Shown in pieces: positions 17,275 to 34,306 of a stretch of DNA of 35,125 nucleotides (within the stretch, counting starts at the first letter, position 1; each line of letters starts with the position of its first letter). A program made the position numbers and the translations under genes. Origin of the DNA: Candidatus Fermentibacterota bacterium (GTDB lineage Bacteria; JAFGKV01); the NCBI GenBank assembly GCA_016928395.1, contig JAFGKV010000038.1, positions 1 to 35,125 of the forward strand, in the 5' to 3' direction. The notes below the pieces were generated by a model, which did no database searches, was not told the origin of the DNA, and saw only the letters and a list, made by a program, of their open reading frames with translations.

Positions 17275-19092
17275 ATGAACACCATGAAAGCTCATTCGAC
17301 GGAGATGTTCGGAAAGAAGATAGGGAGCAGCTGCGTATGGCGCGCATCCGGTGTGGTGTCCGCGCAGATGTGCGAGTCATCCCCGGATAGCTGCGAGGGG
17401 TGCCCGATCTATACGCGCCTTGGCAAGGCGGCATCTCATAGGCAGACTCAGTTTTTCGGCCGCGACTACTTTGATTCGTGCTCGGTCAATGCCTGCGCCG
17501 TCCCAGGCCAGTCGTGCCCGTTCGCGGGACCGTGCATGGCGAATTGGTCGCGGACCAACACTCCGGCGCTGCGGATGCTGACGATGATCGGGATCGGGGC
17601 TCTGTCCATTGGCGAGAACGCATCACTGATCCAGCAGACAACCCGTCGCACCGGTTTGCACGCGGATCTGGTGAGCAGGGTGTTCCAGTTGAGGAACCTG
17701 GTCATGCTGGGGCCTGAGTCGGGGCTGTCTCCCTCTGATCTCGCCCTGTTTACCGCAGAGGAACAGTTCGCCATGGTTGCCGCCGCGTCGTTTCTCGACT
17801 GCCTCGATTCCCTGGATGTGGCCGCGTTTGCCGAAGCCATGATGGAACGCGTACTCCAGCACGGAAACGGATCGCCTTCGCTTTCCGTGAAGCACGATCC
17901 TCCCGACCTGCGGGAGACTCTTCTCGCCCTGCAGGGTTTGGCCGTCTTGGATGTGCTCCCCGCGTTCGACATCGAGATTCTCGGCGAAATCCATGCCGGC
18001 ATGGCTGCCCTGCCGTACCCCTCTATGGCGTTGGCCCAGATGGCCCTCGCCCTTCAGAGGGCCATACAACCCGCGACCTTCAAATCGCCCGCCCTCGAAC
18101 AGAGAACCGTGGAACGCGCCGCCACTCTCGTCACGTTCGCCGATTGGCTGATGGGCAGCGTCTATGACGGTCAGCCGGTCACCTTCCCCGAATTGGCATC
18201 GGCCGTCATCGTGACCCGAACCTTGGGGGCGGTTCCCGACGATGGGGCGATCCCCGCCGGTCGTCTGCTGAAGGCCGAGCTGCTCCGAATGGTCGGAAAT
18301 GAGCGACTGGATATGAGCGGGGCGCACTCGCTGCTGGCAGGGATCGTGGCCTCCGGCGTAAAGCTCGACCCCGACGAGCGCACCGCATTTTCCCGGGCGG
18401 TGGTGCTCTCGTTCCAGGCCCATTTCACGAAACTCGGAGACATGCGGGCCGATCCGGTGTCGCTGATCGCCTACCTGGGGGCCGACAACCTAGTTCGTGA
18501 CCGCAGCCAGTTCGCGGCCATCGCGTCCATGGAGGCGCCCGAGGTCGAGGCCGATCCTGCATTGCTGGGATGCGAGCTTCCGGTCGATCGTTTCTACACC
18601 CGCGGGCATACCTGGATGCACCCGAGTCGAGACGGCGCCCTGCGGGTGGGACTTGACGATCTGGCGGGCCACTTGATCGGTCAGGTCGACGCAATCGAGA
18701 TGCCCGAGCCGGGGAGCCAGTTGCGCCGAGGGAAGCCGGCGCTGCGTTTGATCCGAGGCGGCGAGTCCGTCGACGTATGTGCGCCGATGGACGGCGAAGT
18801 GGTCCTCGTCAACCAGGCGATCATCGACGCCCCCGGCATTCTGCCGGATCAGCCCTACGACGGCGGGTGGCTGTTGTCCATTCGTCCCAAGGTGTCTGGA
18901 GGCAGTCTTTCAGGCCTGCTCTTCGGGGAGAATGCCCGAGAATGGCAGACGACGGAGGCGCGGCGGCTCCAAGAGATGTTCCAGGGCGACATGGCCACTG
19001 CCGCCGACGGCGCAACGCTGGCTCGCGACGCGCTGGCCACCATTCCCGGTGTTCGGTGGTCCAAGGTACTCCGCGCGTTCCTTACGCCGTAA
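17275..19092 (+). CDS. Cys-rich N-terminus, unknown helical region and C-terminal GcvH-like domain lacking the lipoyl lysine
   Basis: FYTRGHTW, LRVGLDDLA, APMDGEVVLVN, PYDGGWL; IRGG where GcvH has ESVK; N-terminal CVWRASGVVSAQMC-x6-CEGC. Confidence 0.8.
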   Translation: MNTMKAHSTEMFGKKIGSSCVWRASGVVSAQMCESSPDSCEGCPIYTRLGKAASHRQTQFFGRDYFDSCSVNACAVPGQSCPFAGPCMANWSRTNTPALRMLTMIGIGALSIGENASLIQQTTRRTGLHADLVSRVFQLRNLVMLGPESGLSPSDLALFTAEEQFAMVAAASFLDCLDSLDVAAFAEAMMERVLQHGNGSPSLSVKHDPPDLRETLLALQGLAVLDVLPAFDIEILGEIHAGMAALPYPSMALAQMALALQRAIQPATFKSPALEQRTVERAATLVTFADWLMGSVYDGQPVTFPELASAVIVTRTLGAVPDDGAIPAGRLLKAELLRMVGNERLDMSGAHSLLAGIVASGVKLDPDERTAFSRAVVLSFQAHFTKLGDMRADPVSLIAYLGADNLVRDRSQFAAIASMEAPEVEADPALLGCELPVDRFYTRGHTWMHPSRDGALRVGLDDLAGHLIGQVDAIEMPEPGSQLRRGKPALRLIRGGESVDVCAPMDGEVVLVNQAIIDAPGILPDQPYDGGWLLSIRPKVSGGSLSGLLFGENAREWQTTEARRLQEMFQGDMATAADGATLARDALATIPGVRWSKVLRAFLTP

Positions 19093-19624
19093 GGAAGTCG
19101 TCGAGCAGTATCCGGCAGTACCGGCACAACTGAGTGGACTTGGCGTCGATGCGCGCCATTTCCCGGGATGCGGTCATCACACAGGAGGGATCCGCGCAGT
19201 GGGTAAGGCCGAAGGTGTGGCCAAGCTCGTGGATCCCTTCCTTGATGACCCGGCTGATGAACAGGGGACGATCACACGGGGGTTGGGTTCCCCGCGACAG
19301 GTTGCCGAGGCGGTGTGTGGACACAATGGCGGCCTTTCCCGGGAGCATGGCCTCTCCGAAGATGTAGCGCAGGATGGGCGTGAAGAGGTCGGCAGTCGTA
19401 ATGCCCAGCAGCCGGACGGCATCGCGGTCTGACGAGGCGAGGTGCTCCAGGATGCGCGTGGCCTGATACTGTCCCCTGTGCATGTCCAGCGCGGAGACCG
19501 GCAGCTTCTCGGCGGCGCCGATGCGGCACTGGAAGGGATACGTCGTGGGAACCTCGGCACACAGGGATGAGAGAAGCTCCTGGTCCGTGATGTCCAGGGC
19601 GACAAGCTCAATGACGGAACTCAT
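19082..19624 (-). CDS. amzA: Archaemetzincin-family zinc metalloprotease
   Basis: RGQY, DLF..ILRYIFGEA, HELGHTFGLTHC, CVM Met-turn, CRYC. Confidence 0.92.
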   Translation of the reverse strand: MSSVIELVALDITDQELLSSLCAEVPTTYPFQCRIGAAEKLPVSALDMHRGQYQATRILEHLASSDRDAVRLLGITTADLFTPILRYIFGEAMLPGKAAIVSTHRLGNLSRGTQPPCDRPLFISRVIKEGIHELGHTFGLTHCADPSCVMTASREMARIDAKSTQLCRYCRILLDDFLTA

Positions 19625-20967
19625 CGCTCACGGGAGAGCTCGTACTTCTTGATCTTGGCGTACAGCGTCCCCCTGTCGATCTTCAATGCCTCGGCGGTAC
19701 GACTGATATTCCAGTCGTACTGCTCGAGCTTTCTGGCGATGAAGTCCCGCTCCCAGGAGTCGAGAGACTCATCCGCCGGCACGGCGATGTCGCTCTGCAG
19801 TGCGATGGGCAGGTCGTCGGGCATGATCCGCTTCTGTTTGCCCACCACCAGCGCACGCTCGATGGCGTTCTCCAGTTCCCGAACATTGCCGGGCCACGCA
19901 TGATTCAGTAAGAGCTGCATGGCTTCAGGAGAGATTGAGCCAACCCTCCTGTTCAAGCGTATGCACAGCTTCTCCAGGAAATGCTCGACCAAAGCCGGGA
20001 TGTCCTCCCTGCGCTCACGCAGGGGCGGTATGTGAATCTGAATGACGTTCAGACGGTAGTAGAGGTCGTGACGGAAGAGCCCTTCCTTCGCGGCCTGCTC
20101 CAAGTCGCGGTTGGTGGCGGCGAGGACCCGGAAATCAGTCTTCACATCCTTGACGCCTCCCACTCGCCGGAAGACCCGCTCCTGGAGCACTCGAAGAAGA
20201 TCGATCTGCATCTTCGGGCTGGCATCACCGATTTCGTCCAGGAAGAGCGTACCCCCCGCGGCAATCTCCAGTAGCCCTTGTTTGGATCTATCGGCCCCGG
20301 TGAAGGCGCCTCTTTCGTAGCCGAAGACCTCACTCTCCAGGAGCGATTCGGTGAAGGCGCCGAAGTTGACGCCGACGAAGAGCCCGTCGGAACGGGAACT
20401 CTTTTCGTGAATCGTGCGCGCCAGCACCTCCTTGCCCGTGCCGCTCTCTCCGGATAGCAGCACCACCGAGTCGGTGGCTGAAACATCCTCCACCAGCTCA
20501 AACACCTTCACCATGGCGGGTGATCGCCCGATCATCGGGCCATAGCTTCCGCACCTTCTTACCTCTTGTTTGAGCATCATGTGCTCTCGCCGGATGACCT
20601 GCTCATCAAGGATCCGCTCGATGAGCAGCCCGATCTCCATGGGATCGAATGGTTTCACCACATAGTCAACAGCACCCAGCTTCATGGCGCGCACCGCGGA
20701 GTCAATGGATCCGTATGCGGTCATCATGAGCACGGGAGTGTCGGGGTCTTCCTCTTTCACCCGCTCCAGCATCTCTATCCCGCTCATTCCGGGCATCTTG
20801 ATATCGACAATCAGCAGATCGAATGACTCTGTCCTGAGCATCTCCAGGCCCGGTTCCGCGGCCTCGGCTACCTCCATCTGGTAGCCGTCTCGTCGGAGCA
20901 GATCCCCCAGAGAGATGCGAATGGAGAGCTCATCATCCACCACGAGTATCTTTGTCTTCCTTCGCAT
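19621..20967 (-). CDS. Sigma-54-dependent response regulator (NtrC/AtoC/ZraR family)
   Basis: Receiver VDDE/DIKMP/KPF, GESGTGKE, GAFTGA, LFLDEIG, WPGNVREL, Fis-type HTH. Confidence 0.96.
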   Translation of the reverse strand: MRRKTKILVVDDELSIRISLGDLLRRDGYQMEVAEAAEPGLEMLRTESFDLLIVDIKMPGMSGIEMLERVKEEDPDTPVLMMTAYGSIDSAVRAMKLGAVDYVVKPFDPMEIGLLIERILDEQVIRREHMMLKQEVRRCGSYGPMIGRSPAMVKVFELVEDVSATDSVVLLSGESGTGKEVLARTIHEKSSRSDGLFVGVNFGAFTESLLESEVFGYERGAFTGADRSKQGLLEIAAGGTLFLDEIGDASPKMQIDLLRVLQERVFRRVGGVKDVKTDFRVLAATNRDLEQAAKEGLFRHDLYYRLNVIQIHIPPLRERREDIPALVEHFLEKLCIRLNRRVGSISPEAMQLLLNHAWPGNVRELENAIERALVVGKQKRIMPDDLPIALQSDIAVPADESLDSWERDFIARKLEQYDWNISRTAEALKIDRGTLYAKIKKYELSRER

Positions 20968-21014: not shown

Positions 21015-22937
21015 TCAATCAGACGCCACGGGCAGCGTGAACGTGAACGTGGATCCGTGTCCCTCGCGGCTCGTCACCTTCATGGTTCCGCCATGTTGGC
21101 GGATGATACCGTAGCTCACACTCAATCCCAGGCCGGTTCCCTGCCCCACCGGCTTGGTGGTGAAGAATGGATCAAAGATCATCGAAAGATGCGCTTCCTT
21201 GATGCCGCAGCCCGTATCCGTGATCGAGACCACCACCTCATCGTCTTCCTCCCTTGAGGAAATAGTCAGCGTGCCTCCCTCGGGCATGGCCTCACAGGCA
21301 TTGAGTGAGAGATTCACCAGTACCTGCTGGATCTGATTGGCGTCGGCCTGCACCGCCCGAAGACCCGGCGTGAGCCGCTCTTCTATGGCGAGCTTGTGAC
21401 ATTCCCGCTGATTGCGCAAGAGCAGCAGCCATCTGTGGATGACCTCGTTCACATCAAGCCGAGTCATCTCGCCGGGCGACTCCCGGGCAAAATCCAAGAG
21501 CCCCCGAACGATCTCTCGAATCCGGGAGGTCTCCTTGTGCATGATCTCGAGGTACTCCCGGCCCTTCGGGGTGATTCCCGCTTCGCTCTTCAACAGGTGC
21601 ACGAAGGTGAGCAACCCGGTGAGGGGGTTGTTGATTTCGTGGGCGATGCCCGCCGCCATCCGCCCGACCGAGGCCAGTTTCTCGCTCTGCCCGATCTGTC
21701 TGAGGGCTCTCTGTTCAAGAGCCTCCTCTCTCTCCGCCACGGCGTCGGCCATTTGATTGATCGCCCGACAGAGAAGACCCATCTCCCCCGGAGGATTCAT
21801 CCTCACCCGGGCCGAAAGATCTCCCTTTGCCACCCGGTCGGACATCTCGACTATCCGGCCGATGGGCCGAAGCACCGATCTGCTGGCCAGAGTCAGCAAA
21901 AGCAGGCTCAGCACCGTGGTCGCCGCGACCACCACGAGAAACGACCCGATGGCCACCCTGCGCGTGTGGACGAACGGCGTCTCCAGCATGCCGACCCCAA
22001 GGGCGCCAATGACTTGGCCTTCAGCATCCACGATGGGCTCATACGCGGTGATGTACCACTCATCCACCACCAGCGCCCGATCCGCCCAATTCTGCTCTCT
22101 CTCCAGCACTCTTCTGTTGACTTCCGGGCTCAGACGCGTGCCGATGGCCCGTGAGCCGTCTTCGTTCTTCATGCTGGTGGTAATTCTGAGGCCCCCCTGG
22201 AACACGGTTGCGGCTCCGGCCGCGACGCCCCGGTAGGTGTCGTCCTGGAACAGGTCCCCCTTGATCTCGTCGACGATCTCGTAACTCTGATTTAGAAGTC
22301 TGGCTCCGTAGAGGAAGCCGACGCATTCCCCTCCCCGTTCCAGGTCCACCAACGTGACAGCCGCCCCGATGACCATGCCATCGCGGTATGCCTCTTCTTC
22401 GCCGGCGGGGGTGATCGAATCGCCGGCTGCTTTCAGGGACGTCTGCCGCGAGAGGCTCTCTCCTTCTCTCACCAGGTTCTCCCACGGGATGATCGCGGTG
22501 CCCCTGACGCACTTCTTCTCCCGCAGAGCTCGGGAGACTATGGGATTGTATGAGGCGTCATCCCCTGCCTCAGCCGGGTTGTTCTCGCGGTAGATAACGC
22601 GGCCGCTTGTGTCCAGCAGGGAGAGCATATCCAGCTTTCCCTCCTGACGGATATGCTGCAACAGCCTCTGCAGCTCGGCGCGGTCCCAGCTCGCCAGCGG
22701 GGTGGGGAGCGAGCGTCGCGCAGCCGTTGCCCGCAGGAGCAGACAGATGTCAGTGACATTCCGGTCGTAGAGTTTCCTGGCCGAGTTGAGGCCCACGCGC
22801 ACCCTGGTCTGAACCTCCTCGGTGAGCATGCCACTTACGCGAAGCAAGATCACCAGTGACAGGGCGGCATTGGTAAGCAGGATGATGGCGATCGAACCAA
22901 CAGTCAGTCGAAACCAGACAGACTTCTTCCAACTCAT
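21015..22937 (-). CDS. Sensor histidine kinase (TM, Cache-like, TM, HAMP, HisKA, HATPase)
   Basis: Two TM helices, RAIGT/YEPI Cache-like motifs, AHEINNPL H-box, NACEA, DTGCG, FFTTK, GTGLGLS. Confidence 0.95.
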   Translation of the reverse strand: MSWKKSVWFRLTVGSIAIILLTNAALSLVILLRVSGMLTEEVQTRVRVGLNSARKLYDRNVTDICLLLRATAARRSLPTPLASWDRAELQRLLQHIRQEGKLDMLSLLDTSGRVIYRENNPAEAGDDASYNPIVSRALREKKCVRGTAIIPWENLVREGESLSRQTSLKAAGDSITPAGEEEAYRDGMVIGAAVTLVDLERGGECVGFLYGARLLNQSYEIVDEIKGDLFQDDTYRGVAAGAATVFQGGLRITTSMKNEDGSRAIGTRLSPEVNRRVLEREQNWADRALVVDEWYITAYEPIVDAEGQVIGALGVGMLETPFVHTRRVAIGSFLVVVAATTVLSLLLLTLASRSVLRPIGRIVEMSDRVAKGDLSARVRMNPPGEMGLLCRAINQMADAVAEREEALEQRALRQIGQSEKLASVGRMAAGIAHEINNPLTGLLTFVHLLKSEAGITPKGREYLEIMHKETSRIREIVRGLLDFARESPGEMTRLDVNEVIHRWLLLLRNQRECHKLAIEERLTPGLRAVQADANQIQQVLVNLSLNACEAMPEGGTLTISSREEDDEVVVSITDTGCGIKEAHLSMIFDPFFTTKPVGQGTGLGLSVSYGIIRQHGGTMKVTSREGHGSTFTFTLPVASD

Positions 22938-23000: not shown

Positions 23001-24872
23001 TCAGTGTACGATTACCGCGTCGTGAGGGCACACGTCGCGGCAGATGCCGCATTTGATGCACAGATCGACGGCGATGCTGTGGGGTTTCTTGTTCTCGCCG
23101 GAGATGGCGTCCTGGGGGCAGTTCCTCGCGCACAGGGTGCAGCCGGTGCACCTGGCTGGATCGATGGAGTACGTGATCAACGCCTTGCACACTCCAGCGG
23201 GGCATCGCTTCTCGCGCACGTGGGCTTCGTACTCGTCCCGGAAGTACCGGAGGGTGCTCAAGACGGGATTGGGAGCCGAACCACCCAGGGCGCAGAGCGA
23301 GCATTCCTTCACCGTGTTGGACAGTTCCTCCAGCAGCGTGATCGTGTGTTCATCGGCCTCGCCATTGCAGATATCGTTGAGCAAGGTGCTGATCTGGGTA
23401 AGGCCCTCGCGGCAGGGCAGACACTTGCCGCACGACTCCCCAATGAGGAAATCGATGAAGTATCGGGCGATGTCAACCATGCAATCGGTCTCATCCATCA
23501 CGATCATGCCGCCTGATCCCATCATCGAGCCGACCCTCGTGAGTTGATCGAAGTCAACCGGCAAGTCGAGCAGTTCTTCCGGGATCACTCCCCCTGAGGG
23601 GCCCCCCGTCTGTACGGCCTTGAACTTCTTCCCTTTGGGGATTCCGCCCCCGATGTCGAACACGATCTCCCGCAAGGTGATCCCCATGGGGACTTCCACG
23701 AGCCCAGTGTTGTGGACCTTGCCCACCAGGGAAAAGACCTTGGTTCCCTTGCTGCCGCCCCAGGGGTTCTCGGAGACGTCACCCGTGCCGATGGAGGTGA
23801 ACCATTGGGCGCCTCGGAGGATGATCGGGGGTACGTTGGCGTAGGTTTCCACGTTGTTCAAATTGGTGGGGCGATCCCATAGTCCATGTTCGACCGTATG
23901 GATGTACTTGGCGCGCGGTTCACCGGGGCGCCCTTCCATGGAGGCCATCAGTGCGCTGGACTCGCCGCATACGAATGCTCCCGCCCCCCGGTGGATGCTG
24001 ACTTCAAAATCGAAGCCTCGGTCGAAGATGTTCTCTCCCAAGAGGCCGTATTCCCGCGCGTCGGCAATGGCCTTTTCCAGGCACTCTCGAGCCAGGGGAT
24101 ACTCATTGCGGATATACACATACCCCTTGCGGGCGCCGATGGCGTAGCCAGCGATGGCCATTCCCTCAAGCACCGCGTGCGGATCACACTCGATGATTGT
24201 GCGGTCCATGTATGCGCCCGGATCACCTTCGTCGGCATTGCAGACGATGTACTTGGGATGCCCGGGGGCCTCTCGGCAGGTCTTCCACTTGATGCCGGTC
24301 GGGAACCCACCGCCACCGCGCCCACGAAGTCCCGAGGCGATCAACTCCTGGATGACCTCTTCCGGCGTCATCGTGCTCAGCGCTGTGGACAATGCCCGGT
24401 AGCCATCTCGGACGATGTAGTCGTCGATAACCTCCGGATCAATGATGCCCCGATTGCGCAAAACCAGCAGACGCTGCTTGCCGAAAAAGCCAATCTCGCT
24501 GATCAACGGCACAGTGCCGGTCTGGGGTGGGAGTGTATGCACACGCTCTTGCAGCGGTCGTCCCTGGAGGACGTGCTCCTGGACGAGGCGCGGTACATCA
24601 TGCTCCGAAAGACCCTGATACACAATCTCCCCCGGGTTCACCACCATGACCGGGCCCTGACCGCAGTGCCCGCGGCAGCCACTCATGCCGATAGCGACCT
24701 CGTGGGACAAACCATGGCGGGTGATTTCCCGCTCGAGTGCCTCCTTGACTCTGTAGGAGCCTCGCCCCGCGCAATCGGTTCCAGCACACAGCATCATGTG
24801 TATGCGATAGCCGCCGGGTATTGCGTCTCCGGTAGTATCACGTCCCACGGTATCGTGTGGTGTCGCGCTCAT
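23001..24872 (-). CDS. NuoF/HydB-type NADH-oxidising flavoprotein subunit (FMN, 2Fe-2S, 4Fe-4S, C-terminal 2x4Fe-4S)
   Basis: LRGRGGGGFPTG, NADEGDPGAYMD, GAGAFVCGE, GGPSGG, ESCGKCLPCREG, two C-terminal CxxCxxCxxxCP motifs. Confidence 0.93.
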   Translation of the reverse strand: MSATPHDTVGRDTTGDAIPGGYRIHMMLCAGTDCAGRGSYRVKEALEREITRHGLSHEVAIGMSGCRGHCGQGPVMVVNPGEIVYQGLSEHDVPRLVQEHVLQGRPLQERVHTLPPQTGTVPLISEIGFFGKQRLLVLRNRGIIDPEVIDDYIVRDGYRALSTALSTMTPEEVIQELIASGLRGRGGGGFPTGIKWKTCREAPGHPKYIVCNADEGDPGAYMDRTIIECDPHAVLEGMAIAGYAIGARKGYVYIRNEYPLARECLEKAIADAREYGLLGENIFDRGFDFEVSIHRGAGAFVCGESSALMASMEGRPGEPRAKYIHTVEHGLWDRPTNLNNVETYANVPPIILRGAQWFTSIGTGDVSENPWGGSKGTKVFSLVGKVHNTGLVEVPMGITLREIVFDIGGGIPKGKKFKAVQTGGPSGGVIPEELLDLPVDFDQLTRVGSMMGSGGMIVMDETDCMVDIARYFIDFLIGESCGKCLPCREGLTQISTLLNDICNGEADEHTITLLEELSNTVKECSLCALGGSAPNPVLSTLRYFRDEYEAHVREKRCPAGVCKALITYSIDPARCTGCTLCARNCPQDAISGENKKPHSIAVDLCIKCGICRDVCPHDAVIVH

Positions 24873-25252
24873 GCCGTATGCTCGCTTCCGATGCCCAGAG
24901 CGTATTCCTCGACGATAGAGCCTTCCAGAACATGACGGTCGAAGATCAGCCCCGCCTTCTTCTCATCGAGATCAACATACTTCACGGGGGCCTGGCCCAT
25001 GACCTGAACGGTGATCATCGGCTCTCGGCTGCAGTAGCCCGCACAGCCGGTGGAGGTAACGGTGACGTCACTGATGCCGGCGTCTTGCACGAGACGCATC
25101 ACCTCAGCCTTGATTCTCTGTGCGCCGGCGGAAATCCCGCAGGTGCCCAGGTGTACGGTGATTTTGACCCTGCCCGCGCCTTGCCCAACGGTCATGGCCT
25201 TCGTTCGCCTCGCCGCGATTGTCTCGAGATCTTCGATCTTCAGTTTGGGCAT
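24869..25252 (-). CDS. Thioredoxin-like [2Fe-2S] ferredoxin subunit (HydD/HndB-like)
   Basis: VHLGTCGISAGA, TGCAGYCSREP. Confidence 0.88.
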   Translation of the reverse strand: MPKLKIEDLETIAARRTKAMTVGQGAGRVKITVHLGTCGISAGAQRIKAEVMRLVQDAGISDVTVTSTGCAGYCSREPMITVQVMGQAPVKYVDLDEKKAGLIFDRHVLEGSIVEEYALGIGSEHTA

Positions 25253-25273: not shown

Positions 25274-25771
25274 TCACGAGGACTGCGCATGCTTCCTCAG
25301 TTCTTCGACGATCTTGAGTGTCTTCACCGTCGAGGTATCGCCATGGACTTCGCCCGCCACGGTCACCACAGGTGCCAAGCCGCAGCATCCCAGGCAGCGC
25401 ACCGATTCCACGCTGAAAAGAAGATCCTGAGTCGCCTGGCCTTCGCGTTCCACCCCCAACTCGCGCATGACATTCTCCAGAATGCGCGACCCTCCCTTGA
25501 CATGGCAGGCAGTGCCGGTACACACGGCAATGGGATACTTTCCTCGAGGCTCCAGCGTGAATCCCTTGTAGAAGGTGGCGATGTGGAACACTCGATTCAA
25601 CGGTACATCCAATTCCTCGGAGAGTCGTCGAGCTGCCTCTTCAGGAATATGGCGATAGTGTTCCTGCACGTCTTGGAGCATCTCGATCAAGTAGCTGCTG
25701 TCGCGCTTCCAGCGATCCATGATTTCATCGAGCGGTGTATCGTACACCTGATTCGCCAACGGTTGTTTCAT
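25274..25771 (-). CDS. NuoE/HydC-type [2Fe-2S] subunit
   Basis: LQDVQ, ATFY, CTGTACHVKG, CLGCCGLAP. Confidence 0.93.
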   Translation of the reverse strand: MKQPLANQVYDTPLDEIMDRWKRDSSYLIEMLQDVQEHYRHIPEEAARRLSEELDVPLNRVFHIATFYKGFTLEPRGKYPIAVCTGTACHVKGGSRILENVMRELGVEREGQATQDLLFSVESVRCLGCCGLAPVVTVAGEVHGDTSTVKTLKIVEELRKHAQSS

Positions 25772-27057
25772 GGTGATGTAGCCTCGGATTCGAAGTGCTC
25801 CTTGCTCAATTCGACAAAGTCCGCATGGCTGATTCGGTGGGCAAATCCCGGGGTCAGCTCAGAATGGCCCATCGCTTCGAGTGCATGGGCGAGCCTCTGC
25901 CACTGCTCGTCGATCCAGGCCTTGACCTGCTCCCGGCCCACTAAGCGGCGACTCTGAAGGTAGAAGTCATCAGGCTGGATCGTGAAGAGCCAGCCACGGC
26001 CATAGCAGTCTTCGTCAAGCAAAGCAGGATCGTCCACCACTGCCCCGTTGACATGGGTGACCGTACCTGAGACCGGCGCCCGCAGGGTCAGGCTGTGCCC
26101 ATCGCTGGTCACCGTAGCCGCCGCGTCCCCGGCGCGTATTGTGTGACCGGGCATAGCGTGCATAATGACTTTTCCGATGGGGCCGACCAGCTGCCGGGCG
26201 AAATCATCCATACCCACGCGGGCATGATCGCCGGTCATCGTGGCCCAGGCATGACCTCGTGAATAGAACCGGTCTTCCACCACGTCAAAGGGGCCGACCT
26301 TGATCGGCGTCTGACGCAATCCCGGGGCGATGGCGAGAATCGGATGGGTGCCGAACTCCTCGAAGATGCGTTGGTCGACCTCGCACTCCGCGCAGCGGAA
26401 GTCATTGGGGCAGATCTTGTATGATATCAAACCCATCCGCGCATAGCGGCACATACGTTTGTCGGAACCGAGCTCCCGGCGCCAGCGTTCGGTGGTCTTC
26501 TCCTCCATGTGCATCGCGCCGGTCGGGCATACATAGACGCATGCCCCGCAGGCAATGCAGGACTCGGGATCTACCGACCATGGGGTCCCCACGATCCGTA
26601 CATTGCCGCGGCCGACAAAGCTGAGTGCCGACGCGCCCACGATTTCATCGCATACGCGCACGCACAGACCGCACATCACGCAATCACTGGCGGCCATGGT
26701 GTGGAATCGAGAGGTGGTCACGCCCACCGATGCGGCCAATTCGCGAACCTTGGGCACGTCGGGACAGCGGGCGAGCATGAGTTCGGCCAGGATCCTGCGG
26801 TGTTGACGGATGCGCTCCGTGTCCGTGAATACCTCAAGGCCTTGCTCCACCGGGAAGTTGCACGAGGTGACCAAACGGGTGCGTCTGCCCCGCTTCACCT
26901 CGACGATGCACATGCGGCAGACGCCATAGGGCTCCAGCCCGTCCATGTGGCAGAGGGTCGGCACGTCGATGCCGAGGCCGCGGATCGCATCCAAAAGGGG
27001 TGATCGGTGAGGGGCCGTTGTTTCCCGACCGTCGATCGTGAGGCGCACCTCGGTCAT
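25768..27057 (-). CDS. NuoG-N/HoxU-like FeS domain fused to a 4-Cys motif and a lipoyl-lysine-less GcvH-like domain
   Basis: PTLCH..CRMC..TSC (2Fe-2S); CVMCGLCVRVC and CIACGACVYVCP; CRYARMGLISYKICPNDFRCAEC; FYSRGHAW, RVGMDDFA, TSDG instead of ESVK, APVSG, CYGRGWL. Confidence 0.88.
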   Translation of the reverse strand: MTEVRLTIDGRETTAPHRSPLLDAIRGLGIDVPTLCHMDGLEPYGVCRMCIVEVKRGRRTRLVTSCNFPVEQGLEVFTDTERIRQHRRILAELMLARCPDVPKVRELAASVGVTTSRFHTMAASDCVMCGLCVRVCDEIVGASALSFVGRGNVRIVGTPWSVDPESCIACGACVYVCPTGAMHMEEKTTERWRRELGSDKRMCRYARMGLISYKICPNDFRCAECEVDQRIFEEFGTHPILAIAPGLRQTPIKVGPFDVVEDRFYSRGHAWATMTGDHARVGMDDFARQLVGPIGKVIMHAMPGHTIRAGDAAATVTSDGHSLTLRAPVSGTVTHVNGAVVDDPALLDEDCYGRGWLFTIQPDDFYLQSRRLVGREQVKAWIDEQWQRLAHALEAMGHSELTPGFAHRISHADFVELSKEHFESEATSP

Positions 27058-28070
27058 GGTGCGCCACGCTTTCCGGCGGTCCTCGCTCGTATACCCTTCT
27101 CTTCCGGTTCGCAGAATGCCTCCACCAAGAAGCGGGAGATGTCGTCAATCATCAGGTCGCCATGGGCGGCCTGCTGGAGAGTGGCCAGGCAGATGGGGCA
27201 CATGGTGGCCACACCTTTGCCCTCGGCATTCTTCAGTTGCTCGACCCGCTTCTTCCCAATCTCGTGGGCCTTCGAGGGGAACAGCGATTCCACCGGGCCT
27301 CCACAGCAGAATGTCAGTTTCCGGCAGTCCTCAGGCTCCCTGACTCCAAACCCCGCCCTCTGCAGCAACTGACGCGGCTCCTCGATGACATTTTCGTACC
27401 GGGCGTAGACGCATGAATCGTGGATCGTGATGTCGTTCTCGACCTGTCTGAGAGGCCGGAGGGTATCGGTAGCAGCCAGAACTTCAAGGTAGCTCTTGAC
27501 CTCGATATCGAAGCCATCGATGACCGTCGGATACACTGAGCGCAGCATGTTGGTGGTGTGCGGATCGATGGTAATAAGCGTGCGAACGCCATGACTCTTG
27601 AGCACGGCGTAGACCTTTCGGGCGTGGGCGGCAAAAACCCTGTCCGCCCCCATATCGAATGCCAGGGCCCCGGCGTAGAGATCATCTTTATAGAGGTAGC
27701 CGAATTGCACCCCCGCCTGAAGAAGAAGGCGGGCAATATCGCGGATGGTGCGCGCGAATCGTTTCTGATCCGACGGTTTGGGCATGAACATGATGGATGA
27801 CACGTTGACTATCCGGTTGAAAAAGCGGCCCAGCCCGACGAATCGCCCCAAGAATGAATTCTCCATCATTCCCATGACGTTCACTGCTGCGATCATATAG
27901 GGAAGCAGTTGGTACATCGAGCCGGTGTACAGAACTGTCTCGCCGCCGGCAGGAATCCCCAGTGAGTCGGCCCATTTGACGGCTTGTCTCCCCGAGATCG
28001 GGAAGACCGACTTCCTCTTCTCGAGATTATCCATCATGATGCCGATCACGGGCCCGGTGGGAAGCGGCAT
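27054..28070 (-). CDS. CCG-domain (HdrB/HdrD-like) Fe-S protein
   Basis: HDSC, FCCGG, TMCPIC in the second domain; first CCG domain degenerate (YTGS, LYAGA, IDPH). Confidence 0.88.
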   Translation of the reverse strand: MPLPTGPVIGIMMDNLEKRKSVFPISGRQAVKWADSLGIPAGGETVLYTGSMYQLLPYMIAAVNVMGMMENSFLGRFVGLGRFFNRIVNVSSIMFMPKPSDQKRFARTIRDIARLLLQAGVQFGYLYKDDLYAGALAFDMGADRVFAAHARKVYAVLKSHGVRTLITIDPHTTNMLRSVYPTVIDGFDIEVKSYLEVLAATDTLRPLRQVENDITIHDSCVYARYENVIEEPRQLLQRAGFGVREPEDCRKLTFCCGGPVESLFPSKAHEIGKKRVEQLKNAEGKGVATMCPICLATLQQAAHGDLMIDDISRFLVEAFCEPEEKGIRARTAGKRGAP

Positions 28071-28085: not shown

Positions 28086-28388
28086 CTACAGCTTGAAGAC
28101 TTCCTTGCCGATATAGGTGCGCAGGAACCGTACGTTCTCTGCGATGTGCACGTTGGCCGTGCAGTTGGCCTCACACATCTTGCATAGCAAACACTGGTAA
28201 ATCGACTCGGTGTGCTCCAGCACCTTCTCTTCAAGTCCCAAGAGGACACAGTGAAAGAGCTTTCGGGGCAGCAGGTCTATTTCCATGGGGCACACGGCGG
28301 TGCAGACACCGCAGTCCATGCACTCCGTGGCGTTGAACTCCTTTGATGTTATCACTTTGCTGAGAAATGCCGCGTTCACCTGCGCCAT
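28086..28388 (-). CDS. HdrC-like 2x[4Fe-4S] protein
   Basis: CMDCGVCTAVCP, PRK, CLLCKMCEANC. Confidence 0.88.
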   Translation of the reverse strand: MAQVNAAFLSKVITSKEFNATECMDCGVCTAVCPMEIDLLPRKLFHCVLLGLEEKVLEHTESIYQCLLCKMCEANCTANVHIAENVRFLRTYIGKEVFKL

Positions 28389-28399
28389 TGCCCTCTCCT

Positions 28400-28639
28400 C
28401 TACTCGCTCTTCACCAATTCATACTGGAAGTAGTCATCGTCGGGGTCTTTGACCTCTGCGATGAGGCCATACTTCCTGGCGGCCATCACCCAGTACATCA
28501 CCTCGTGGACCGGAAAGCCCAAAGACTCGGCGATCTCCGGGACGGTCAGGGGCCCATTCTCCAGCGCGGCCAGCACCTTGTCGCGCATCACCATCTCGTC
28601 TCGTATGACCTCGCGCGGGTCCCGAAGTCGCCTATCCAC
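28400..28639 (-). CDS. Small winged-HTH protein
   Basis: VLAALENGPLTVPEIAESLG...RKYGLI; start overlaps hdrA stop. Confidence 0.75.
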   Translation of the reverse strand: MDRRLRDPREVIRDEMVMRDKVLAALENGPLTVPEIAESLGFPVHEVMYWVMAARKYGLIAEVKDPDDDYFQYELVKSE

Positions 28640-30368
28640 GGGAGGCCTCCACCATATCGATCATCATGGCGTCAATCATCGCGCGGATCTGCCCGTCGGT
28701 GTAGCCCTTCACCCCCAGCGCCCCCTGCGGGCACGCCGGCACGCAGGCGCCACACCCCTTGCACAATGACGTGTTGACTTCGGCGATCTCCTTGTCCCCA
28801 AAGGAGATCTTCTCGATAGCGGAGTAGGGACAGCTCCCGACACATTCGCCGCACCATGTACAGGTTTCCGGATCCACCACAGCTATCAAGGGCTCCAACT
28901 CGACATAGCCCTTCTTCAGGAGGGCTGCCGTCTTTGCCACGGCGGCCAATGACGATGCGACGCTTTCGGCCGAGTTGCGGGGCGCCTGGGCCGTACCGGC
29001 GATGAAGACGCCGTCGATGACGGTCTCCACTGGCCGCAGCTTGGGGTGGATCTCCTTGAAGAAACCATCCAAGCCCACGGGAACTTTGAGGACGTCATTC
29101 AAGGCCTGGTTCGGTCGAGGCTCCATGCCGGTCGCCAACACCACCAGATCGGTCTCGATATCCAGCTCCTCACCGGCCATCAGCATGTCCTTGACCTGGA
29201 TTCGGAAGCGCCCGTTGGATTTCTCCACCTGAGGCGGATCCTCGCCATCAAACCTGATGAAGACGGCACCCTTCTGACGCGCGTCCTGGTAGAGAAGCTC
29301 ATACTTTCCGTACGTACGGATATCTCGGAAGAGATGAAACTGGTGCACTGCGGGGGATAGCTCGTGCGCCAAAGAGGATGCATGCATGGCCGCATTGCAG
29401 CAGTAACGCGAGCAATACATGTTTGGTGTGTCTTTCTGGGAGCTTCCTCGCGAACCAACGCAGTAAATGTAGGTCACCGTGTCAACCGGCCTGCCTCGAT
29501 ACGTGAGCCCGCCCTCGCTCCCATCGAGCAGGCGTTTGAACTCGGTCAGTGTCAGGACGCCGTCGGTACCATACGAATATTCACCGCTGGCGGGTTCGTA
29601 CGGGACGAACCCCGTGGTGGTGATGATCGAACCAACACTGAGAGTCACCGGCTCACCCTTTACATCGAGTCTGACCGTGAAGTCTCCTACGCTCCCCGAC
29701 TTCTCCCGGAGCTCGGCGTGGGTGTAGATGTGCACGTTCTCCCGTAGTCCGGCTTCTCGAACAAGGTCAGCGATCAGATCCTGTCCTCGACGATCATGGG
29801 GATACATCCGACCAAACTCTGCGACCCAGCCGCCAACCTTGTCACTCTTCTCGGCCACAAACACGCTGAGGCCAAGATCGGACAGCGCCAATGCAGCCCG
29901 GAGCCCGGAGATCCCGGCACCAATCACCAGGGCACGCGGAACGGTCTCGATCCGAGTCTTGATCAGAGGCTCCGTGAGGCGTGCCTTGGCAATGCCGGCC
30001 TTGACGAGATTGATGGCTTTCTCGGTAGCCTGGTCAGGCACATCGGTGTGCGCCCAGGAGCACTGCTCCCGCAGGTTCACCTGGATATACAGATAGGGAT
30101 TCAAGCCTGCCCGTTCGGCGACACCCCGGAAGGTGAACAGGTGGAGGGTCGGGGAGCACGAGGCAACTACCAAGGCGTCGAGCCCTTGCTGCTGGATGTC
30201 GTCTATCATCTCTTGCTGGGCCGCGTCGGAGCAGGCAAACATGGTAGTCTTGGCGACCTTGACTTCCTCTTCGCCGGCGATCGCATCACGGACCGATTCG
30301 CAGTTCACATAGTCGGAGATGTTTCCACCGCAGTAACAGATATAGACGCCGATCTTCCTGGTGCTCAT
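28632..30368 (-). CDS. hdrA: HdrA-family FAD/FeS protein (N-terminal domain, FAD domain, C-terminal ferredoxin; no inserted ferredoxin)
   Basis: IGVYICYCGGNI, ASCSP, NLREQCSWAH, VIGAGISG, CVGSR...CSRYCC, HPKLRPVET, two CxxCxxCxxxCP. Confidence 0.92.
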   Translation of the reverse strand: MSTRKIGVYICYCGGNISDYVNCESVRDAIAGEEEVKVAKTTMFACSDAAQQEMIDDIQQQGLDALVVASCSPTLHLFTFRGVAERAGLNPYLYIQVNLREQCSWAHTDVPDQATEKAINLVKAGIAKARLTEPLIKTRIETVPRALVIGAGISGLRAALALSDLGLSVFVAEKSDKVGGWVAEFGRMYPHDRRGQDLIADLVREAGLRENVHIYTHAELREKSGSVGDFTVRLDVKGEPVTLSVGSIITTTGFVPYEPASGEYSYGTDGVLTLTEFKRLLDGSEGGLTYRGRPVDTVTYIYCVGSRGSSQKDTPNMYCSRYCCNAAMHASSLAHELSPAVHQFHLFRDIRTYGKYELLYQDARQKGAVFIRFDGEDPPQVEKSNGRFRIQVKDMLMAGEELDIETDLVVLATGMEPRPNQALNDVLKVPVGLDGFFKEIHPKLRPVETVIDGVFIAGTAQAPRNSAESVASSLAAVAKTAALLKKGYVELEPLIAVVDPETCTWCGECVGSCPYSAIEKISFGDKEIAEVNTSLCKGCGACVPACPQGALGVKGYTDGQIRAMIDAMMIDMVEASRG

Positions 30369-33073
30369 CGCTTCACTCTCTCAACGTATGCCGCACTCAA
30401 GGCAGCAGCCGCCCCGGAATGCAGGATGGTATCCGGGATATCCATAGCCGCCGATGCCGAGCCGGCCACATACACCCCCTCGATGCTGGTCTGGCCCGGG
30501 CTGAGATCCTCGTCAGTCTCCTTCACATAGTGATGGGCGTCAGGAGCCAAAGCGCCACCAGAGAAGAGCGACAGGGCCTCGCGATTTGGCAGCAACCCCA
30601 CCGAGAGGATCACGAGATCATGCTCGGTTCGCACCACCTTGCCTTCGCCGCTGATGTCCTCATACTGCAGTATCAGGTTGCCATCGTCACCCTGTTCGAC
30701 CTTGGCCACCTTGCCCTTCACGAAGTTGACTCCCATGGCCTTGGATTGCTCGTAGAATTCCTCGAATCCTTTGCCGAACGCCCGCACGTCGATGAAGTAG
30801 ATCGTCACGTCCGCCAGCGGCAGAGCCCCCATAACGAGCTGCGCCTGCTTGATCGTGTACATGCAGCACACCCGCGAGCACAGCTGATTGTCCGACTGGA
30901 AGTCGCGGGAGCCCGTGCAGAGAATGTAGGCGATGTTGTCAGGGATCTTCCCGTCTGACGGGCGAAGCACGGTGTTGTACGGCCGCGTGGGGGAAAGCAA
31001 CCGATCCATCTGCATGGCAGTGATCACATTGGGGAACCGGCCGTACCCCATCTGAACCTTGCCGACGGGGTCGAAAAGGTCGAACCCAGTGGAGACCACC
31101 ACCGAGCCCACTTCAAGGATCTGCTCCTGATCGCGCATGCCGAAGTCAATGGCATCGGCAGGACACGCGCTGATGCATTGGTGGCACTCACAGCAGCCGC
31201 CGCAATCGATGCACCGTGCCGCGCTCTGGCGGGCCGCAGCCTCCTCAACCCCCAACTCCACCTCGTCAAAGTCGGTCCGGCGTTGTGCCGCGGGGCGGAG
31301 ATCGCGGCTCGCTCGAGGCAGCGTGGTGTAGTGGTCTTGGCGCGTGAGGGTACGACTCTTTTCGACCGCAATGAGGTCTGCGTCGACGTCATCGCGGATC
31401 CGCGGCTGGCCTCGCAAGAAGCGGTCAATACACCGAGCGGCACGACTGCCAAGACCGATGGCCTCAACCACCGAGCTCGGTCCCGAAACCACGTCTCCTC
31501 CGGCAAATACACCGGGAATAGCGGTCTCCATGGTACGAGGATCAATAACGATCGTGTGCGATGGCGTGGTGTGAAGCCCTGATGTGCCGCCTGCGGAGCC
31601 AACATCCTGCCCCACGGCGAGGATCATTCGGTCAACCTCCATGGATTCGGTGCCCGGCCCGACGGAGCCAGGCAGGACTCGTCCCGTCACATCTCGCCCG
31701 CCTACTCGTATCTCCGCGCTCTCCACCCGCACCAGTTGCCCATCCACTCCCACCAGTTTCGCGGGGGCCCTCAAGAATTGGATGGTCACTCCTTCCTCAA
31801 GGGCGTCTTCAATGGCCCACTCCACGCTGGAAAGCTCTTCCCTGCTGCGGCGGAACTGCACCACCACGCGCGTAGCCCCCAACCGGGACGCGGTACGGGC
31901 GCAATCCAGCGCGATGCCGTACCTGCCCCCCCCGGCCACCAACACGGTCTTGCCGCGCACATTGGGCGGGTTGCCGGCGGCAACCTGTGTGAGAAACTGA
32001 ACCGCTCCCATCACCCCTTCCAGGTCAACGCCGTCAATGGCGGGAATAGAGTCTTTCCATGTGCCCGTGGCCACGAATACGGCATCGAAGCCCTGCCGCG
32101 CGAGCCGTGACGGATCATCAACCGCCTGACCGGTGCGGATCTCGACTCCCAATGCCGTGACATTGGCTATGTCGCGTTCAAGCACTTCCGTGGGCAGGCG
32201 GAAAGGCGGGATGAGACGAAGCATGCCCCCCGGCTTTTCCTGGGCCTCAAATACAGTGACTGGGTAGCCGAGCCGTGCCAGGTGATACGCGGCCGTCAGC
32301 CCGGCCGGCCCGGCGCCAACCACGGCCACCCGCTCGTTGTGCCGATCCTCGGGAGGGCCGTACTCAGGCTGCGGATGCAACTGGTAATAGCGGTCAGCGG
32401 CATACCGCTTGAGTGTGCGGATAGGGACGGAGCCTTCCAGTTCATTGCGCGTGCAGGCCCGCTCGCAGGGCGCATAGCATGTCCTCCCGAGCGTACCCAC
32501 GAAGGGGACTGCCTCCAGGATCAGTTTCATCGCCTCGTCATGCAGGCCGCTGCGGATCAGGGAGACATACCCGTGAGCCTTGATGCCCGCTGGGCATGCC
32601 TGGGTGCATGGCGATGTCCCGTACCGTTCGAGTACGGCCTTCTTGGGTACTGCCTGCGCAAACGGAATATACGCCGCCCTTCGAGCCACCATGCCGAAAT
32701 TGAACTGATCAGGTATGGCCACGGTGCATGCCAGCTCACACTTCTGGCACCCCGTGCACTTGTCGAAATCGACATAGGTGGCCTTCCGTTCAAGCTTCGC
32801 CTCGAAAGTACCGCGAGGCGTCTTGGCTATGCCCCCGATCGTAGTATAGGTCAAGGTCGTGACCTGCGGGTGATGAAAGGTGGAGGCCATCTTCGGTGTG
32901 GCGATGCAACTGGCGCAGTCCAGCGTGGGGAAGACCTTGCTCAGCAGGATCATCTTGCCACCGATGGTGGGTTCCTTTTCCACCAGTGCCACGGAGTAGC
33001 CCATGTCGCCCAGTGTGAGTGCGGATTCCATACCCGCGGTTCCCCCCCCCACCACGAGGACGTCATAGTCCAT
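30365..33073 (-). CDS. HdrA-family protein with inserted GltD/NfnB-like pyridine-nucleotide oxidoreductase module (HdrL-like), lacking HdrA N-terminal domain
   Basis: VVGGGTAG, FPTLDCASC, CTGCQKC; insert PCTQACPAG, CYAPCERAC, VGAGPAG, FAGGD; CCECHQCISACP, CTGSRD, CSRVCCMY; ATG 33073 directly after mvhD stop. Confidence 0.9.
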   Translation of the reverse strand: MDYDVLVVGGGTAGMESALTLGDMGYSVALVEKEPTIGGKMILLSKVFPTLDCASCIATPKMASTFHHPQVTTLTYTTIGGIAKTPRGTFEAKLERKATYVDFDKCTGCQKCELACTVAIPDQFNFGMVARRAAYIPFAQAVPKKAVLERYGTSPCTQACPAGIKAHGYVSLIRSGLHDEAMKLILEAVPFVGTLGRTCYAPCERACTRNELEGSVPIRTLKRYAADRYYQLHPQPEYGPPEDRHNERVAVVGAGPAGLTAAYHLARLGYPVTVFEAQEKPGGMLRLIPPFRLPTEVLERDIANVTALGVEIRTGQAVDDPSRLARQGFDAVFVATGTWKDSIPAIDGVDLEGVMGAVQFLTQVAAGNPPNVRGKTVLVAGGGRYGIALDCARTASRLGATRVVVQFRRSREELSSVEWAIEDALEEGVTIQFLRAPAKLVGVDGQLVRVESAEIRVGGRDVTGRVLPGSVGPGTESMEVDRMILAVGQDVGSAGGTSGLHTTPSHTIVIDPRTMETAIPGVFAGGDVVSGPSSVVEAIGLGSRAARCIDRFLRGQPRIRDDVDADLIAVEKSRTLTRQDHYTTLPRASRDLRPAAQRRTDFDEVELGVEEAAARQSAARCIDCGGCCECHQCISACPADAIDFGMRDQEQILEVGSVVVSTGFDLFDPVGKVQMGYGRFPNVITAMQMDRLLSPTRPYNTVLRPSDGKIPDNIAYILCTGSRDFQSDNQLCSRVCCMYTIKQAQLVMGALPLADVTIYFIDVRAFGKGFEEFYEQSKAMGVNFVKGKVAKVEQGDDGNLILQYEDISGEGKVVRTEHDLVILSVGLLPNREALSLFSGGALAPDAHHYVKETDEDLSPGQTSIEGVYVAGSASAAMDIPDTILHSGAAAALSAAYVERVKR

Positions 33074-33074
33074 C

Positions 33075-33509
33075 TCAGCCTGCCTTCCCTGGAGATCCAA
33101 GCTTCTTGAGGTCAGTGAAGAAGTTCTTCATGTGCCGTTGGAAGGCCTCTGCGCATACGGAGCAGATGGCAGCCATCTTCAGCCGCTCCGGCTTCAGACC
33201 GTGTTCTCTGAGAAGGTTCTGCGCCCGTTCCATCACCTTGGCGGTCCTGTCCGTGCAGTCAGGGAGGAACGGGCAGTCCGTTCCGTCGGCGGCAACGAAC
33301 ACGCCGTCAAACCCGTGGGTGAGCGCGTAGAGAACCCACTCCGGCCTGATGCCGCTGGAGCAGGGAAGCGGAATAGAGATGGCGGTGGGAGGATAGTGCA
33401 TGTGGGAACTGCCGGCCATATCAATGCCGATGTCGGAAATGGTTACCGTCGAGAACACGAGAATCCGTGGCCGGAAGTCGTCTCCCGCCATCCCACCGCC
33501 ATGCTCCAT
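33075..33509 (-). CDS. MvhD/FlpD-like iron-sulfur subunit (atypical Cys pattern)
   Basis: FRPRILVF, IDMAG...YP, PCSS, GFDGVFVA, DC, GLKPERL; C-terminal CSVC. Confidence 0.82.
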   Translation of the reverse strand: MEHGGGMAGDDFRPRILVFSTVTISDIGIDMAGSSHMHYPPTAISIPLPCSSGIRPEWVLYALTHGFDGVFVAADGTDCPFLPDCTDRTAKVMERAQNLLREHGLKPERLKMAAICSVCAEAFQRHMKNFFTDLKKLGSPGKAG

Positions 33510-33511
33510 GG

Positions 33512-33769: not shown

Positions 33770-33784
33770 GGTCTTACCCCTTCT

Positions 33785-34144: not shown

Positions 34145-34306
34145 GAATTCCTCCGTGCGCAGAAAACAGATTCAACTGCAGCAGCCCCGCCCTTTTCTTC
34201 CAGCGTGGCGTGATCTAACGGCTCAAACGTCTCGAGGTCTTCGGAATGAAACCTCCTTGTTGTGTGGTGTCTTCGTGACGTGACGCAGAAAACGTGGATG
34301 CCACGG

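Follow-up and report, generated by a model that had tools for sequence, protein, structure and literature searches.

The fusion gene and its iron-sulfur domains

The stretch of DNA analysed here, referred to below as the window, covers 35,125 nucleotides (nt) of contig JAFGKV010000038.1 in the assembly GCA_016928395.1 of a Candidatus Fermentibacterota bacterium, and carries on its minus strand (25768..27057) a gene encoding a BfuA-type Fe-S subunit fused to a C-terminal GcvH-like module in which the lipoyl lysine is missing. This open reading frame (ORF) begins with ATG, encodes 429 residues in a single frame and overlaps both of its neighbours by 4 nt, its start with the stop of the upstream gene and its stop with the start of the downstream gene; its annotation draws on the ORF list, on Pfam and on the recurrence of the same architecture in database clusters (see below). 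Four ORFs overlap it in other frames (three plus-strand, one minus-strand), and none of them matches Pfam.

Regarding the N-terminal half, residues 2-80 (26818..27054, minus strand) form a [2Fe-2S] domain for the predicted cluster A1 (Fer2_4, Pfam, E 1.1e-16) with the ligands C36/C47/C50/C66, and residues 123-184 (26506..26691, minus strand) form a 2x[4Fe-4S] ferredoxin domain for the predicted clusters A2 and A4 (Fer4_7/Fer4, Pfam), which aligns to 9mqx_A and has the ligands C126/C129/C132/C136 and C167/C170/C173/C177. All 12 ligand cysteines are invariant in an alignment of 49 homologues reaching down to 36% identity. The motif HxxxCxxC of a His-ligated A3 cluster was not found in residues 81-122, a segment over which the profile alignment is gapped against Thermoanaerobacter kivui HydA and continuous against 9mqx_A. 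Behind the ferredoxin domain follows an invariant Cx12Cx5Cx2C motif (C203, C216, C222 and C225; residues 203-225, 26383..26451, minus strand), probably a WorA-like zinc finger, the structural alignment to 9mqx_A extending to model residue 218. The closest solved relative of this half is 9MQX chain A, both by profile (E 7.2e-59) and by structure (Z 20.7 over 213 residues, model residues 1-218), and on these profile and model comparisons it is assigned as a BfuA subunit of the WorA type. The protein contains the two domains that PMC9304861 gives as the minimum of a BfuA subunit, one of [2Fe-2S] and one of [4Fe-4S] ferredoxin type, and BfuB and BfuC are encoded with it, a synteny that is retained in eight further loci (L001-L008). 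Homologues of 249-266 amino acids (aa) without a GcvH domain keep the four-cysteine stretch (CRY...C...C..C-VDQR...THP) and end shortly thereafter.

An earlier note on this stretch had described the [2Fe-2S] plus 2x[4Fe-4S] domain, the missing His-ligated motif, a four-cysteine motif within 26374-26451 and a GcvH fold with glycine at the lipoyl-lysine position (26098-26100), all of which agrees with the results given here. Its premise that such an N-terminal domain should lead to a catalytic H-cluster or Mo/W site is outdated, because short BfuA subunits of the WorA type without a catalytic domain are known (PMC12318220, PMC9304861) and residues 1-218 of the fusion protein are closest to WorA.

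An H-protein fold without the lipoyl lysine

The C-terminal part of the fusion protein has the fold of an H-protein (GcvH) in residues 257-390 (25888..26289, minus strand). The Pfam family GCV_H matches residues 264-383 with E 2.6e-18 and 66.5 bits against a cut-off of 22.2, while the scores stay below the NCBIfam cut-offs for GcvH (NF002270, 72.2 against 117; TIGR00527, 60.4 against 115.85). The AlphaFold2 model of the protein has a mean predicted local distance difference test (pLDDT) score of 87.3 and a predicted template modelling (pTM) score of 0.61, with block-mean pLDDT values of 83-94 over residues 251-390, and its C-terminal domain superimposes on solved H-proteins with Z 17-19.5, a root-mean-square deviation (rmsd) of 1.3-1.5 and 24-32% identity, the best superposition being that on 1htp (Z 19.5, rmsd 1.4, 131 residues) and the Foldseek match to 1onl_A having a template modelling (TM) score of 0.93. 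The fold match is thus far above chance, and the domain is conserved.

When residues 251-429 are aligned by HMMER to four solved H-proteins, no gap falls within the hairpin and the lipoyl-lysine column is occupied by Gly320 (26098..26100, minus strand), and the hairpin tip of the model is formed by D319-G320 between the strands 312-318 and 321-326; no lysine is present within residues 297-347, so that the lysine at the hairpin tip which would have spoken against the earlier description is absent. Among the 49 fusion-family sequences this column holds glycine in 24, lysine in three and other residues in 22, and the column after it holds arginine in 22, lysine in 14, histidine in 11 and glycine in two. 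Lipoylation of the basic residue beside the tip was considered and rejected, this residue being histidine in the window's protein and arginine, lysine or histidine across the family. The GcvH-like domain is incapable of lipoylation. The canonical GcvH of the same genome is encoded on another contig and retains ESVK; neither gcvT nor gcvP was seen among the genes of the window.

No conserved cysteine is found inside the H-fold. The residues that are conserved there (H269, W271, G282, D284, P328, G331, N337, P344, G355 and W356) are mostly identical in the aligned solved H-proteins and therefore look like residues of the fold and not like those of a new active site. The module ends in a conserved helical tail (residues 375-423; 25789..25935, minus strand), with model helices at 375-395 and 405-423 and a conserved pattern in the consensus, which is visible in stand-alone proteins of the family too.

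The operon around the fusion gene

The genes on the minus strand follow in the order DsrE2-like, TusA, MvhD, HdrL-like, HdrA, HdrC, HdrB-like, BfuA-GcvH, BfuC, ferredoxin, BfuB, histidine kinase, sigma54 regulator and M54 peptidase, and the fusion gene is part of a HydABC/Bfu-type NADH/ferredoxin module inside one conserved Bfu-Hdr operon. Downstream of it are genes encoding the BfuC/NuoE-like [2Fe-2S] subunit (25274..25771; 2Fe-2S_thioredx, Pfam, E 5.1e-45), a small thioredoxin-like [2Fe-2S] ferredoxin of 127 aa (24869..25252; weak Pfam and NCBIfam matches, conserved in L001, L002 and L003) and the BfuB/NuoF-like flavin mononucleotide (FMN) subunit of 623 aa (23001..24872; Pfam), which, like bifurcating enzymes, carries [2Fe-2S] at the N-terminus and 2x[4Fe-4S] at the C-terminus; among solved structures it is closest to such enzymes (7t2r_B, E 1.8e-228; 9mqx_B, E 3.7e-218). 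These are followed by a Cache/HAMP sensor histidine kinase (21015..22937; Pfam), an NtrC-like response regulator of 448 aa (19621..20967; ORF), which is read as probably sigma54-dependent, its homologues in the loci L186-L190 carrying Sigma54_activat, and an archaemetzincin-like Peptidase_M54 (19082..19624; Pfam), the sole copy in the genome.

Upstream of the fusion gene are genes encoding an HdrB-like subunit of 338 aa with a single CCG motif (27054..28070; Pfam CCG 214-299; invariant C220, C255, C256, C291 and C294), an HdrC-like 2x[4Fe-4S] subunit of 100 aa (28086..28388; Pfam, NCBIfam), an HdrA-like flavoprotein of 578 aa (28632..30368; NCBIfam HdrA2, E 3.5e-143, below its cut-off), an HdrA-like protein of 911 aa with a GltD/NfnB-like insertion (30365..33100; Pfam, NCBIfam), labelled HdrL-like here, an MvhD-like [2Fe-2S] subunit (33075..33509; FlpD, Pfam, E 6.8e-28), a TusA-family sulfur carrier (33512..33769; Pfam, E 1.3e-20) and a DsrE/DsrE2-like protein (33785..34144; Pfam DrsE_2, E 2e-24; NCBIfam DsrE2, 63 bits, below the cut-off of 210). 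A gene for an ArsR/SmtB regulator with weak BigR/TsoR similarity (34307-34633, minus strand) is located upstream of the operon. The N-terminal half of the HdrB-like protein is strongly conserved and has no cysteine (for example D169-P170-H171-T172), and homologues of this protein that are at least 55% identical reach Bacillota and Spirochaetia.

The MvhD, TusA, DsrE2-like and ArsR/SmtB genes upstream of the Hdr genes (33075-34633, minus strand) point to a protein-bound sulfur substrate. On this gene content, the substrate of the Bfu-Hdr complex may be a disulfide or persulfide carried by the TusA and DsrE2-like proteins. Elsewhere in the window, a 729-aa protein (14416-16605, plus strand) combines CopD-like, cytochrome b5-like and multi-haem cytochrome c domains, and no WorS or WorL genes were seen among the scanned ORFs of the window.

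Conservation and genomic contexts of the fusion

PF13510 and PF01597 occur together in 106 of the 120 best database clusters, with lengths of 404-533 aa and the window's own cluster included; the named sources of these clusters are Deltaproteobacteria, Zixibacteria, Planctomycetota, Elusimicrobiota and Desulfobacterales. Full-length matches to the fusion were detected in eight loci of species genomes and at least two metagenome loci (L084 and L085). The closest operon, L001, is labelled as a Deltaproteobacteria metagenome-assembled genome; the complete run of 14 genes, DsrE through M54, is repeated there in the same order, with 71% identity for the fusion protein. L002 and L084 match the window operon over the parts covered. 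Of the loci compared, only the window and L001 have TusA and DsrE; MvhD is conserved in L001 as well.

A more distant fusion subfamily with 36-46% identity occupies other contexts. The order in L004 and L008 is NuoE, NuoF, GltD-like and BfuA-GcvH, and in L085 a GltD-like gene is directly upstream; molybdopterin enzymes are encoded near the fusion gene in L005, L006 and L007, and in L003 the fusion occurs without any Hdr and with a HydS-like regulatory cluster. Since the partners of the fusion differ between loci (Hdr, GltD-like, molybdopterin, HydS-like), the GcvH-like domain is not tied to one partner. L005 and L007 have NuoF-like and GltD-like frames as one ORF of 1011-1023 aa (2853-5941), followed by a short BfuA and a second set of NuoE, NuoF and BfuA-GcvH, which makes two tandem Bfu modules beside a molybdopterin enzyme.

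Regarding distribution, the other two of the three species genomes of the source GTDB phylum, one of the same genus (82% complete) and one of the same family (98% complete), lacked matches to the module at E<=1e-15. The stretch itself is contained, in short contig pieces only, in one DNA run, which is probably the source sample, and no RNA run was found to contain it.

A family of lysine-less H-like modules

When 1.84 billion representatives were searched with residues 195-429, 4324 matches were obtained at E<=1e-3 and, canonical H-proteins being counted, 1105 at E<=1e-10, while 18 reached E<=1e-30; the family was analysed over the 150 best matches, to which P0001 and P0121 were added for the count at the lipoyl column (152 sequences). 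This column holds lysine in five sequences and glycine in 64. By motif and phmmer, the 150 best matches include 51 proteins of 161-260 aa without the Cys motif, 31 with two or more motifs, 30 stand-alone proteins with one motif, 11 of 540-571 aa and four of canonical size; about 16 of the 150 are BfuA fusions or their fragments, and the others are mostly stand-alone. The traits that define the family, Cx12Cx5-7Cx2C, an H-fold with a tip other than lysine and often a basic residue next to it, and a C-terminal helical extension, are all present in the fusion protein of the window, and its C-terminal 235 residues (Cys knuckle, H-fold and helical tail) are on these sequence traits assigned to a large uncharacterised family.

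A Pfam scan of 14 representatives revealed two composite members, P0192 (505 aa), in which the Cys knuckle and GCV_H are followed by HisKA and HATPase_c, and P0141 (1391 aa), which has three GCV_H domains, FAD_binding_4, FAD-oxidase_C, Fer4_8 and two CCG domains. Directly after the fusion gene, L002, L003 and L007 encode stand-alone proteins of 313-347 aa in which the Cx12Cx5Cx2C motif occurs twice. The window contains a second lysine-less GcvH-like protein, P0121 (605 aa; 17275..19092, plus strand), with an N-terminal Cx12Cx7Cx2C, GCV_H at residues 440-554 and glycine in the lysine column; its gene converges on the M54 gene with an overlap of 11 nt, and its homologue in L002 is 59% identical. 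P0121 also has further cysteines and a middle part of about 370 residues without a Pfam family. Matches in the ESM Atlas, all to clusters named 'putative glycine cleavage H' (251-308 aa, scores 0.85-0.89), are taken as leads only.

Association with kinase, sigma54 regulator and M54 peptidase genes

Genomes bearing the fusion contain several matches to the module, seven in G004 and five in G003, and six further places were examined, five with stand-alone genes (L186-L190) and one, L191, with a gene of the 605-aa type. All five stand-alone genes have beside them genes encoding a PAS histidine kinase of 508-532 aa, a sigma54 response regulator of 447-453 aa and a Peptidase_M54 of 181-201 aa, and this cassette is directly adjacent in four of the five places. 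L188 has, all on one strand and in this order, genes for the kinase, the regulator, M54, a protein with zinc finger and GcvH, GcvH and a GAF-kinase. The gene of the 605-aa protein abuts the M54 gene both in the window and in L002, and in L002 a gap of 211 nt separates the BfuA-GcvH gene from the end of a kinase-regulator-M54 cassette upstream of it. The source genome (4.8 Mb) has one M54 gene, that of the window cassette, and Peptidase_M54 was detected in three of 14 control genomes, all three of them archaea.

L191 has no M54 and contains HydS-like and PHP genes instead. Genes for HydS-like sensory hydrogenase proteins (Fe_hyd_lg_C and FeS) adjoin GcvH-like genes in L003 (14118-17916) and in L191 (2991-5899), both without the M54 cassette; PHP genes are present in both loci, and DRTGG and HATPase genes in L003.

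Possible roles of the module

The reading that we prefer, though we would put it at somewhat less than an even chance, is that the module is a non-catalytic interaction or sensing handle which couples the Bfu-Hdr complex to the kinase, sigma54 and M54 cassette. The complex would connect NADH and ferredoxin to the HdrB-like CCG site, with electrons passing from FMN and the B clusters through A1, A2 and A4 to the MvhD/HdrA-type flavins and on through HdrC to the HdrB-like CCG site. The GcvH-like module, without lipoate and without catalysis, would serve protein recognition or sensing and would link the complex to the neighbouring histidine kinase, sigma54 regulator and M54 cassette, possibly to P0121 too, so that the state of the electron wire, or that of a thiol or sulfane-sulfur pool, could be relayed to transcription. 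A wider and more speculative version, which we regard as unlikely, is that the Cys knuckle and H-fold module is a new signal-input domain, whether stand-alone, fused to a kinase or tethered to BfuA, that would inform a dedicated cassette, with M54 as a processing component, about the redox or sulfane-sulfur state of Hdr/Bfu complexes, in a four-part regulatory system not yet described.

A number of observations weigh against this coupling to the cassette. The evidence for contact between the module and any cassette protein is indirect, and the position of the domain right behind the WorA-like zinc finger suits a plain adaptor equally. The five stand-alone places come from only two genomes (G003 and G004) and are therefore not independent; Hdr-like genes flank four of them (L186-L189), and the stand-alone genes may be mere structural genes of neighbouring Hdr-like operons under control of the cassette. 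No M54 was found in the examined flanks of the BfuA-GcvH loci L003-L006 and L008, the M54 nearest to L007 is about 15 kb away on the same contig (in L188), and the kinase fusion is one of 150 representatives. A scan for the sigma54 promoter consensus gave three matches where 5.85 were expected by chance, none of them upstream of the operon, and the region 34100-34340 was unconvincing by inspection. A complex prediction of the HdrB-like and HdrC-like proteins with residues 195-429 scored 0.00 and, having been run without controls, is given no weight in either direction.

The GcvH-like domain could alternatively be a structural docking adaptor that replaces the adaptor helix of WorA and recruits a partner, MvhD/HdrL/HdrA in the window and GltD-like or Mo/W-pterin modules elsewhere, so that a cluster of the partner comes within tunnelling distance of A4. 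This explanation, the main rival of the coupling, which we consider possible if somewhat less likely, is consistent with WorA being the best structural relative of residues 1-218, with the C-terminal helix that is supported by the four-cysteine zinc finger in WorA and recruits WorS (PMC12318220), with the end of the 249-266 aa homologues just past the four-cysteine motif and with the varied partner modules that adjoin the fusion genes (Hdr, GltD-like, molybdopterin). The three GCV_H domains ahead of the FAD-oxidase, Fer4 and 2xCCG parts of P0141 fit it as well, and at least 14 BfuA-GcvH clusters share their longest-contig figure with HdrB-like clusters, which suggests common contigs. Short BfuA forms that lack a GcvH-like domain, however, have the same GltD-like and Hdr partners, which makes the domain dispensable for that docking; moreover, most family members stand alone and are attached to no wire, and an adaptor leaves both the adjacency to M54 and two-component genes and the kinase fusion unexplained.

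An improbable alternative is a cofactor or sulfur-relay module resembling LbpA, in which the four cysteines bind a redox-active A5-like [4Fe-4S] cluster or carry persulfide, or the cleft of the H-fold binds a free thiol/disulfide cofactor, and a TusA/DsrE2-like substrate is presented to the HdrB-like CCG site. The DsrE2-like and TusA genes at the head of the operon, conserved in L001, the ArsR/SmtB regulator upstream with its weak BigR/TsoR similarity and the translational coupling of the HdrB-like gene to the fusion gene would fit such a relay, as would the dependence of sHdr systems on a GcvH-like lipoate-binding protein (PMC6067878) and the correspondence of the four cysteines with those that hold the A5 [4Fe-4S] cluster elsewhere among BfuA proteins (PMC12318220). 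Against it, the lysine is missing and the adjoining column, with arginine, lysine or histidine in 47 of 49 sequences, offers no thiol, the H-fold itself is without conserved cysteine, and the four cysteines bind zinc in the closest solved relative; TusA and DsrE, moreover, are restricted to the window and L001 among the loci compared, and for some fusion genes no CCG protein was detected in the scanned parts of the flanks.

It is very improbable that the domain is vestigial, a degenerate GcvH or LbpA that became attached by chance and is retained with no role of its own. The variability of the hairpin-tip column and the lack of conspicuous polar residues specific to the family would fit this, but the residues of the fold and those of the helical tail remain conserved in homologues from several phyla with as little as 36% identity, the model of the H-fold is confident (block-mean pLDDT as given above), and the family is large and diverse. 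An assembly chimera or missed frameshift joining two genes, which the earlier note had named as grounds for withdrawing its proposal, is effectively refuted, since nothing was found in its favour beyond the origin of the window in a sediment metagenome assembly, and against it stand the single frame, the coupled start and stop overlaps, the same architecture in the best clusters from several sources and at full length in the genome and metagenome loci named above, and the repetition of the operon in L001.

Returning to the handle between the Bfu-Hdr complex and the cassette, the earlier note had proposed that the GcvH-like domain is a docking, regulatory or redox module attached to an NADH dehydrogenase, a three-way proposal that is too broad to be refuted. 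What can be retained of it is a non-lipoylated, non-catalytic accessory on the wire of BfuBC, for which comparative genomics supports a regulatory or docking role; a redox cluster at the four cysteines is disfavoured, as their position matches the structural zinc finger of WorA and the motif is kept in BfuA proteins without GcvH and recurs, often twice, N-terminally in stand-alone GcvH-like proteins.

Electron bifurcation in anaerobes is driven mainly by two engines, the Bfu and Hdr modules, whose interconnection and control are largely unexplored. In the fusion protein, the BfuA wire of a Bfu-Hdr complex associated with sulfur carriers bears an accessory domain that is recurrent and conserved, and this domain is tied to a large family of H-protein look-alikes which carry no lipoate and accompany two-component, sigma54 and M54 cassettes. 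If the link is functional, it would provide a concrete role for bacterial archaemetzincin-like peptidases and for hundreds of proteins annotated 'glycine cleavage H', an annotation that is wrong for the lysine-less members of the family. While BfuA wires, H-proteins and Hdr-Bfu combinations (Bam) are already known, neither the fusion nor the association with the cassette was found described in the literature searched: no paper was found on a BfuA/NuoG-like-GcvH fusion or on a kinase-sigma54-M54-GcvH-like cassette in a search that left subscription journals and supplements largely outside, and 'glycine cleavage' is absent from the text of the Bfu papers searched and 'GcvH' from that of PMC9304861, their supplements being outside the search.

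Comparison with known systems

The closest known counterpart is WorA of Acetomicrobium mobile, part of the bifurcating tungsten aldehyde oxidoreductase WorABCSL (PDB 9MQX), which has neither an A3 cluster nor a catalytic C-terminal domain; its zinc finger is formed by the four cysteines that ligate the [4Fe-4S] cluster A5 in other BfuA proteins and buttresses the C-terminal helix by which the polyferredoxin WorS is recruited near cluster A4 (PMC12318220). Like WorA, the fusion protein has one [2Fe-2S] and two [4Fe-4S] clusters by its ligands, no A3, a four-cysteine site past the ferredoxin domain, no catalytic domain, and BfuB and BfuC as partners. Unlike WorA, which has 247 aa and a short adaptor helix binding WorS, it adds about 180 residues of H-fold and helices, and its partners are of the Hdr type.

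With GcvH the C-terminal domain shares the fold and most core residues, and it differs in having glycine in place of the lipoyl lysine, in the loss of ESVK, in its fusion to an Fe-S wire, in the Cys knuckle before it and in the helical tail after it. LbpA is a stand-alone protein lipoylated on a conserved lysine; like LbpA of the sHdr systems, the GcvH-like domain is genetically tied to Hdr-like, TusA and DsrE genes, and unlike LbpA it has no lysine and is fused. The sHdr gene set also differs from that of the window, which has MvhD, an HdrL-like protein, a one-CCG HdrB-like protein and a Bfu module. Two NCBIfam families give weak matches to the H-fold, both far below their cut-offs, NF045810 'GcvH-related protein' with 38.6 bits against a cut-off of 150 and TIGR03077 'glycine cleavage protein H-like protein' with 27.1 bits against a cut-off of 144.

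Regarding the complex as a whole, Bfu enzymes in which BfuA only wires extra subunits to the BfuBC core are defined in PMC9304861, and the window operon resembles the Bam-Bfu enzyme described there (the class II benzoyl-CoA reductase BamBCDEFGHI) and other Type 2/3 Bfu enzymes in combining BfuABC with an HdrA-type bifurcating module and in the wiring of extra subunits by BfuA, while it differs from Bam-Bfu in that no genes for the tungsten-pterin proteins BamB/C are present in the window.

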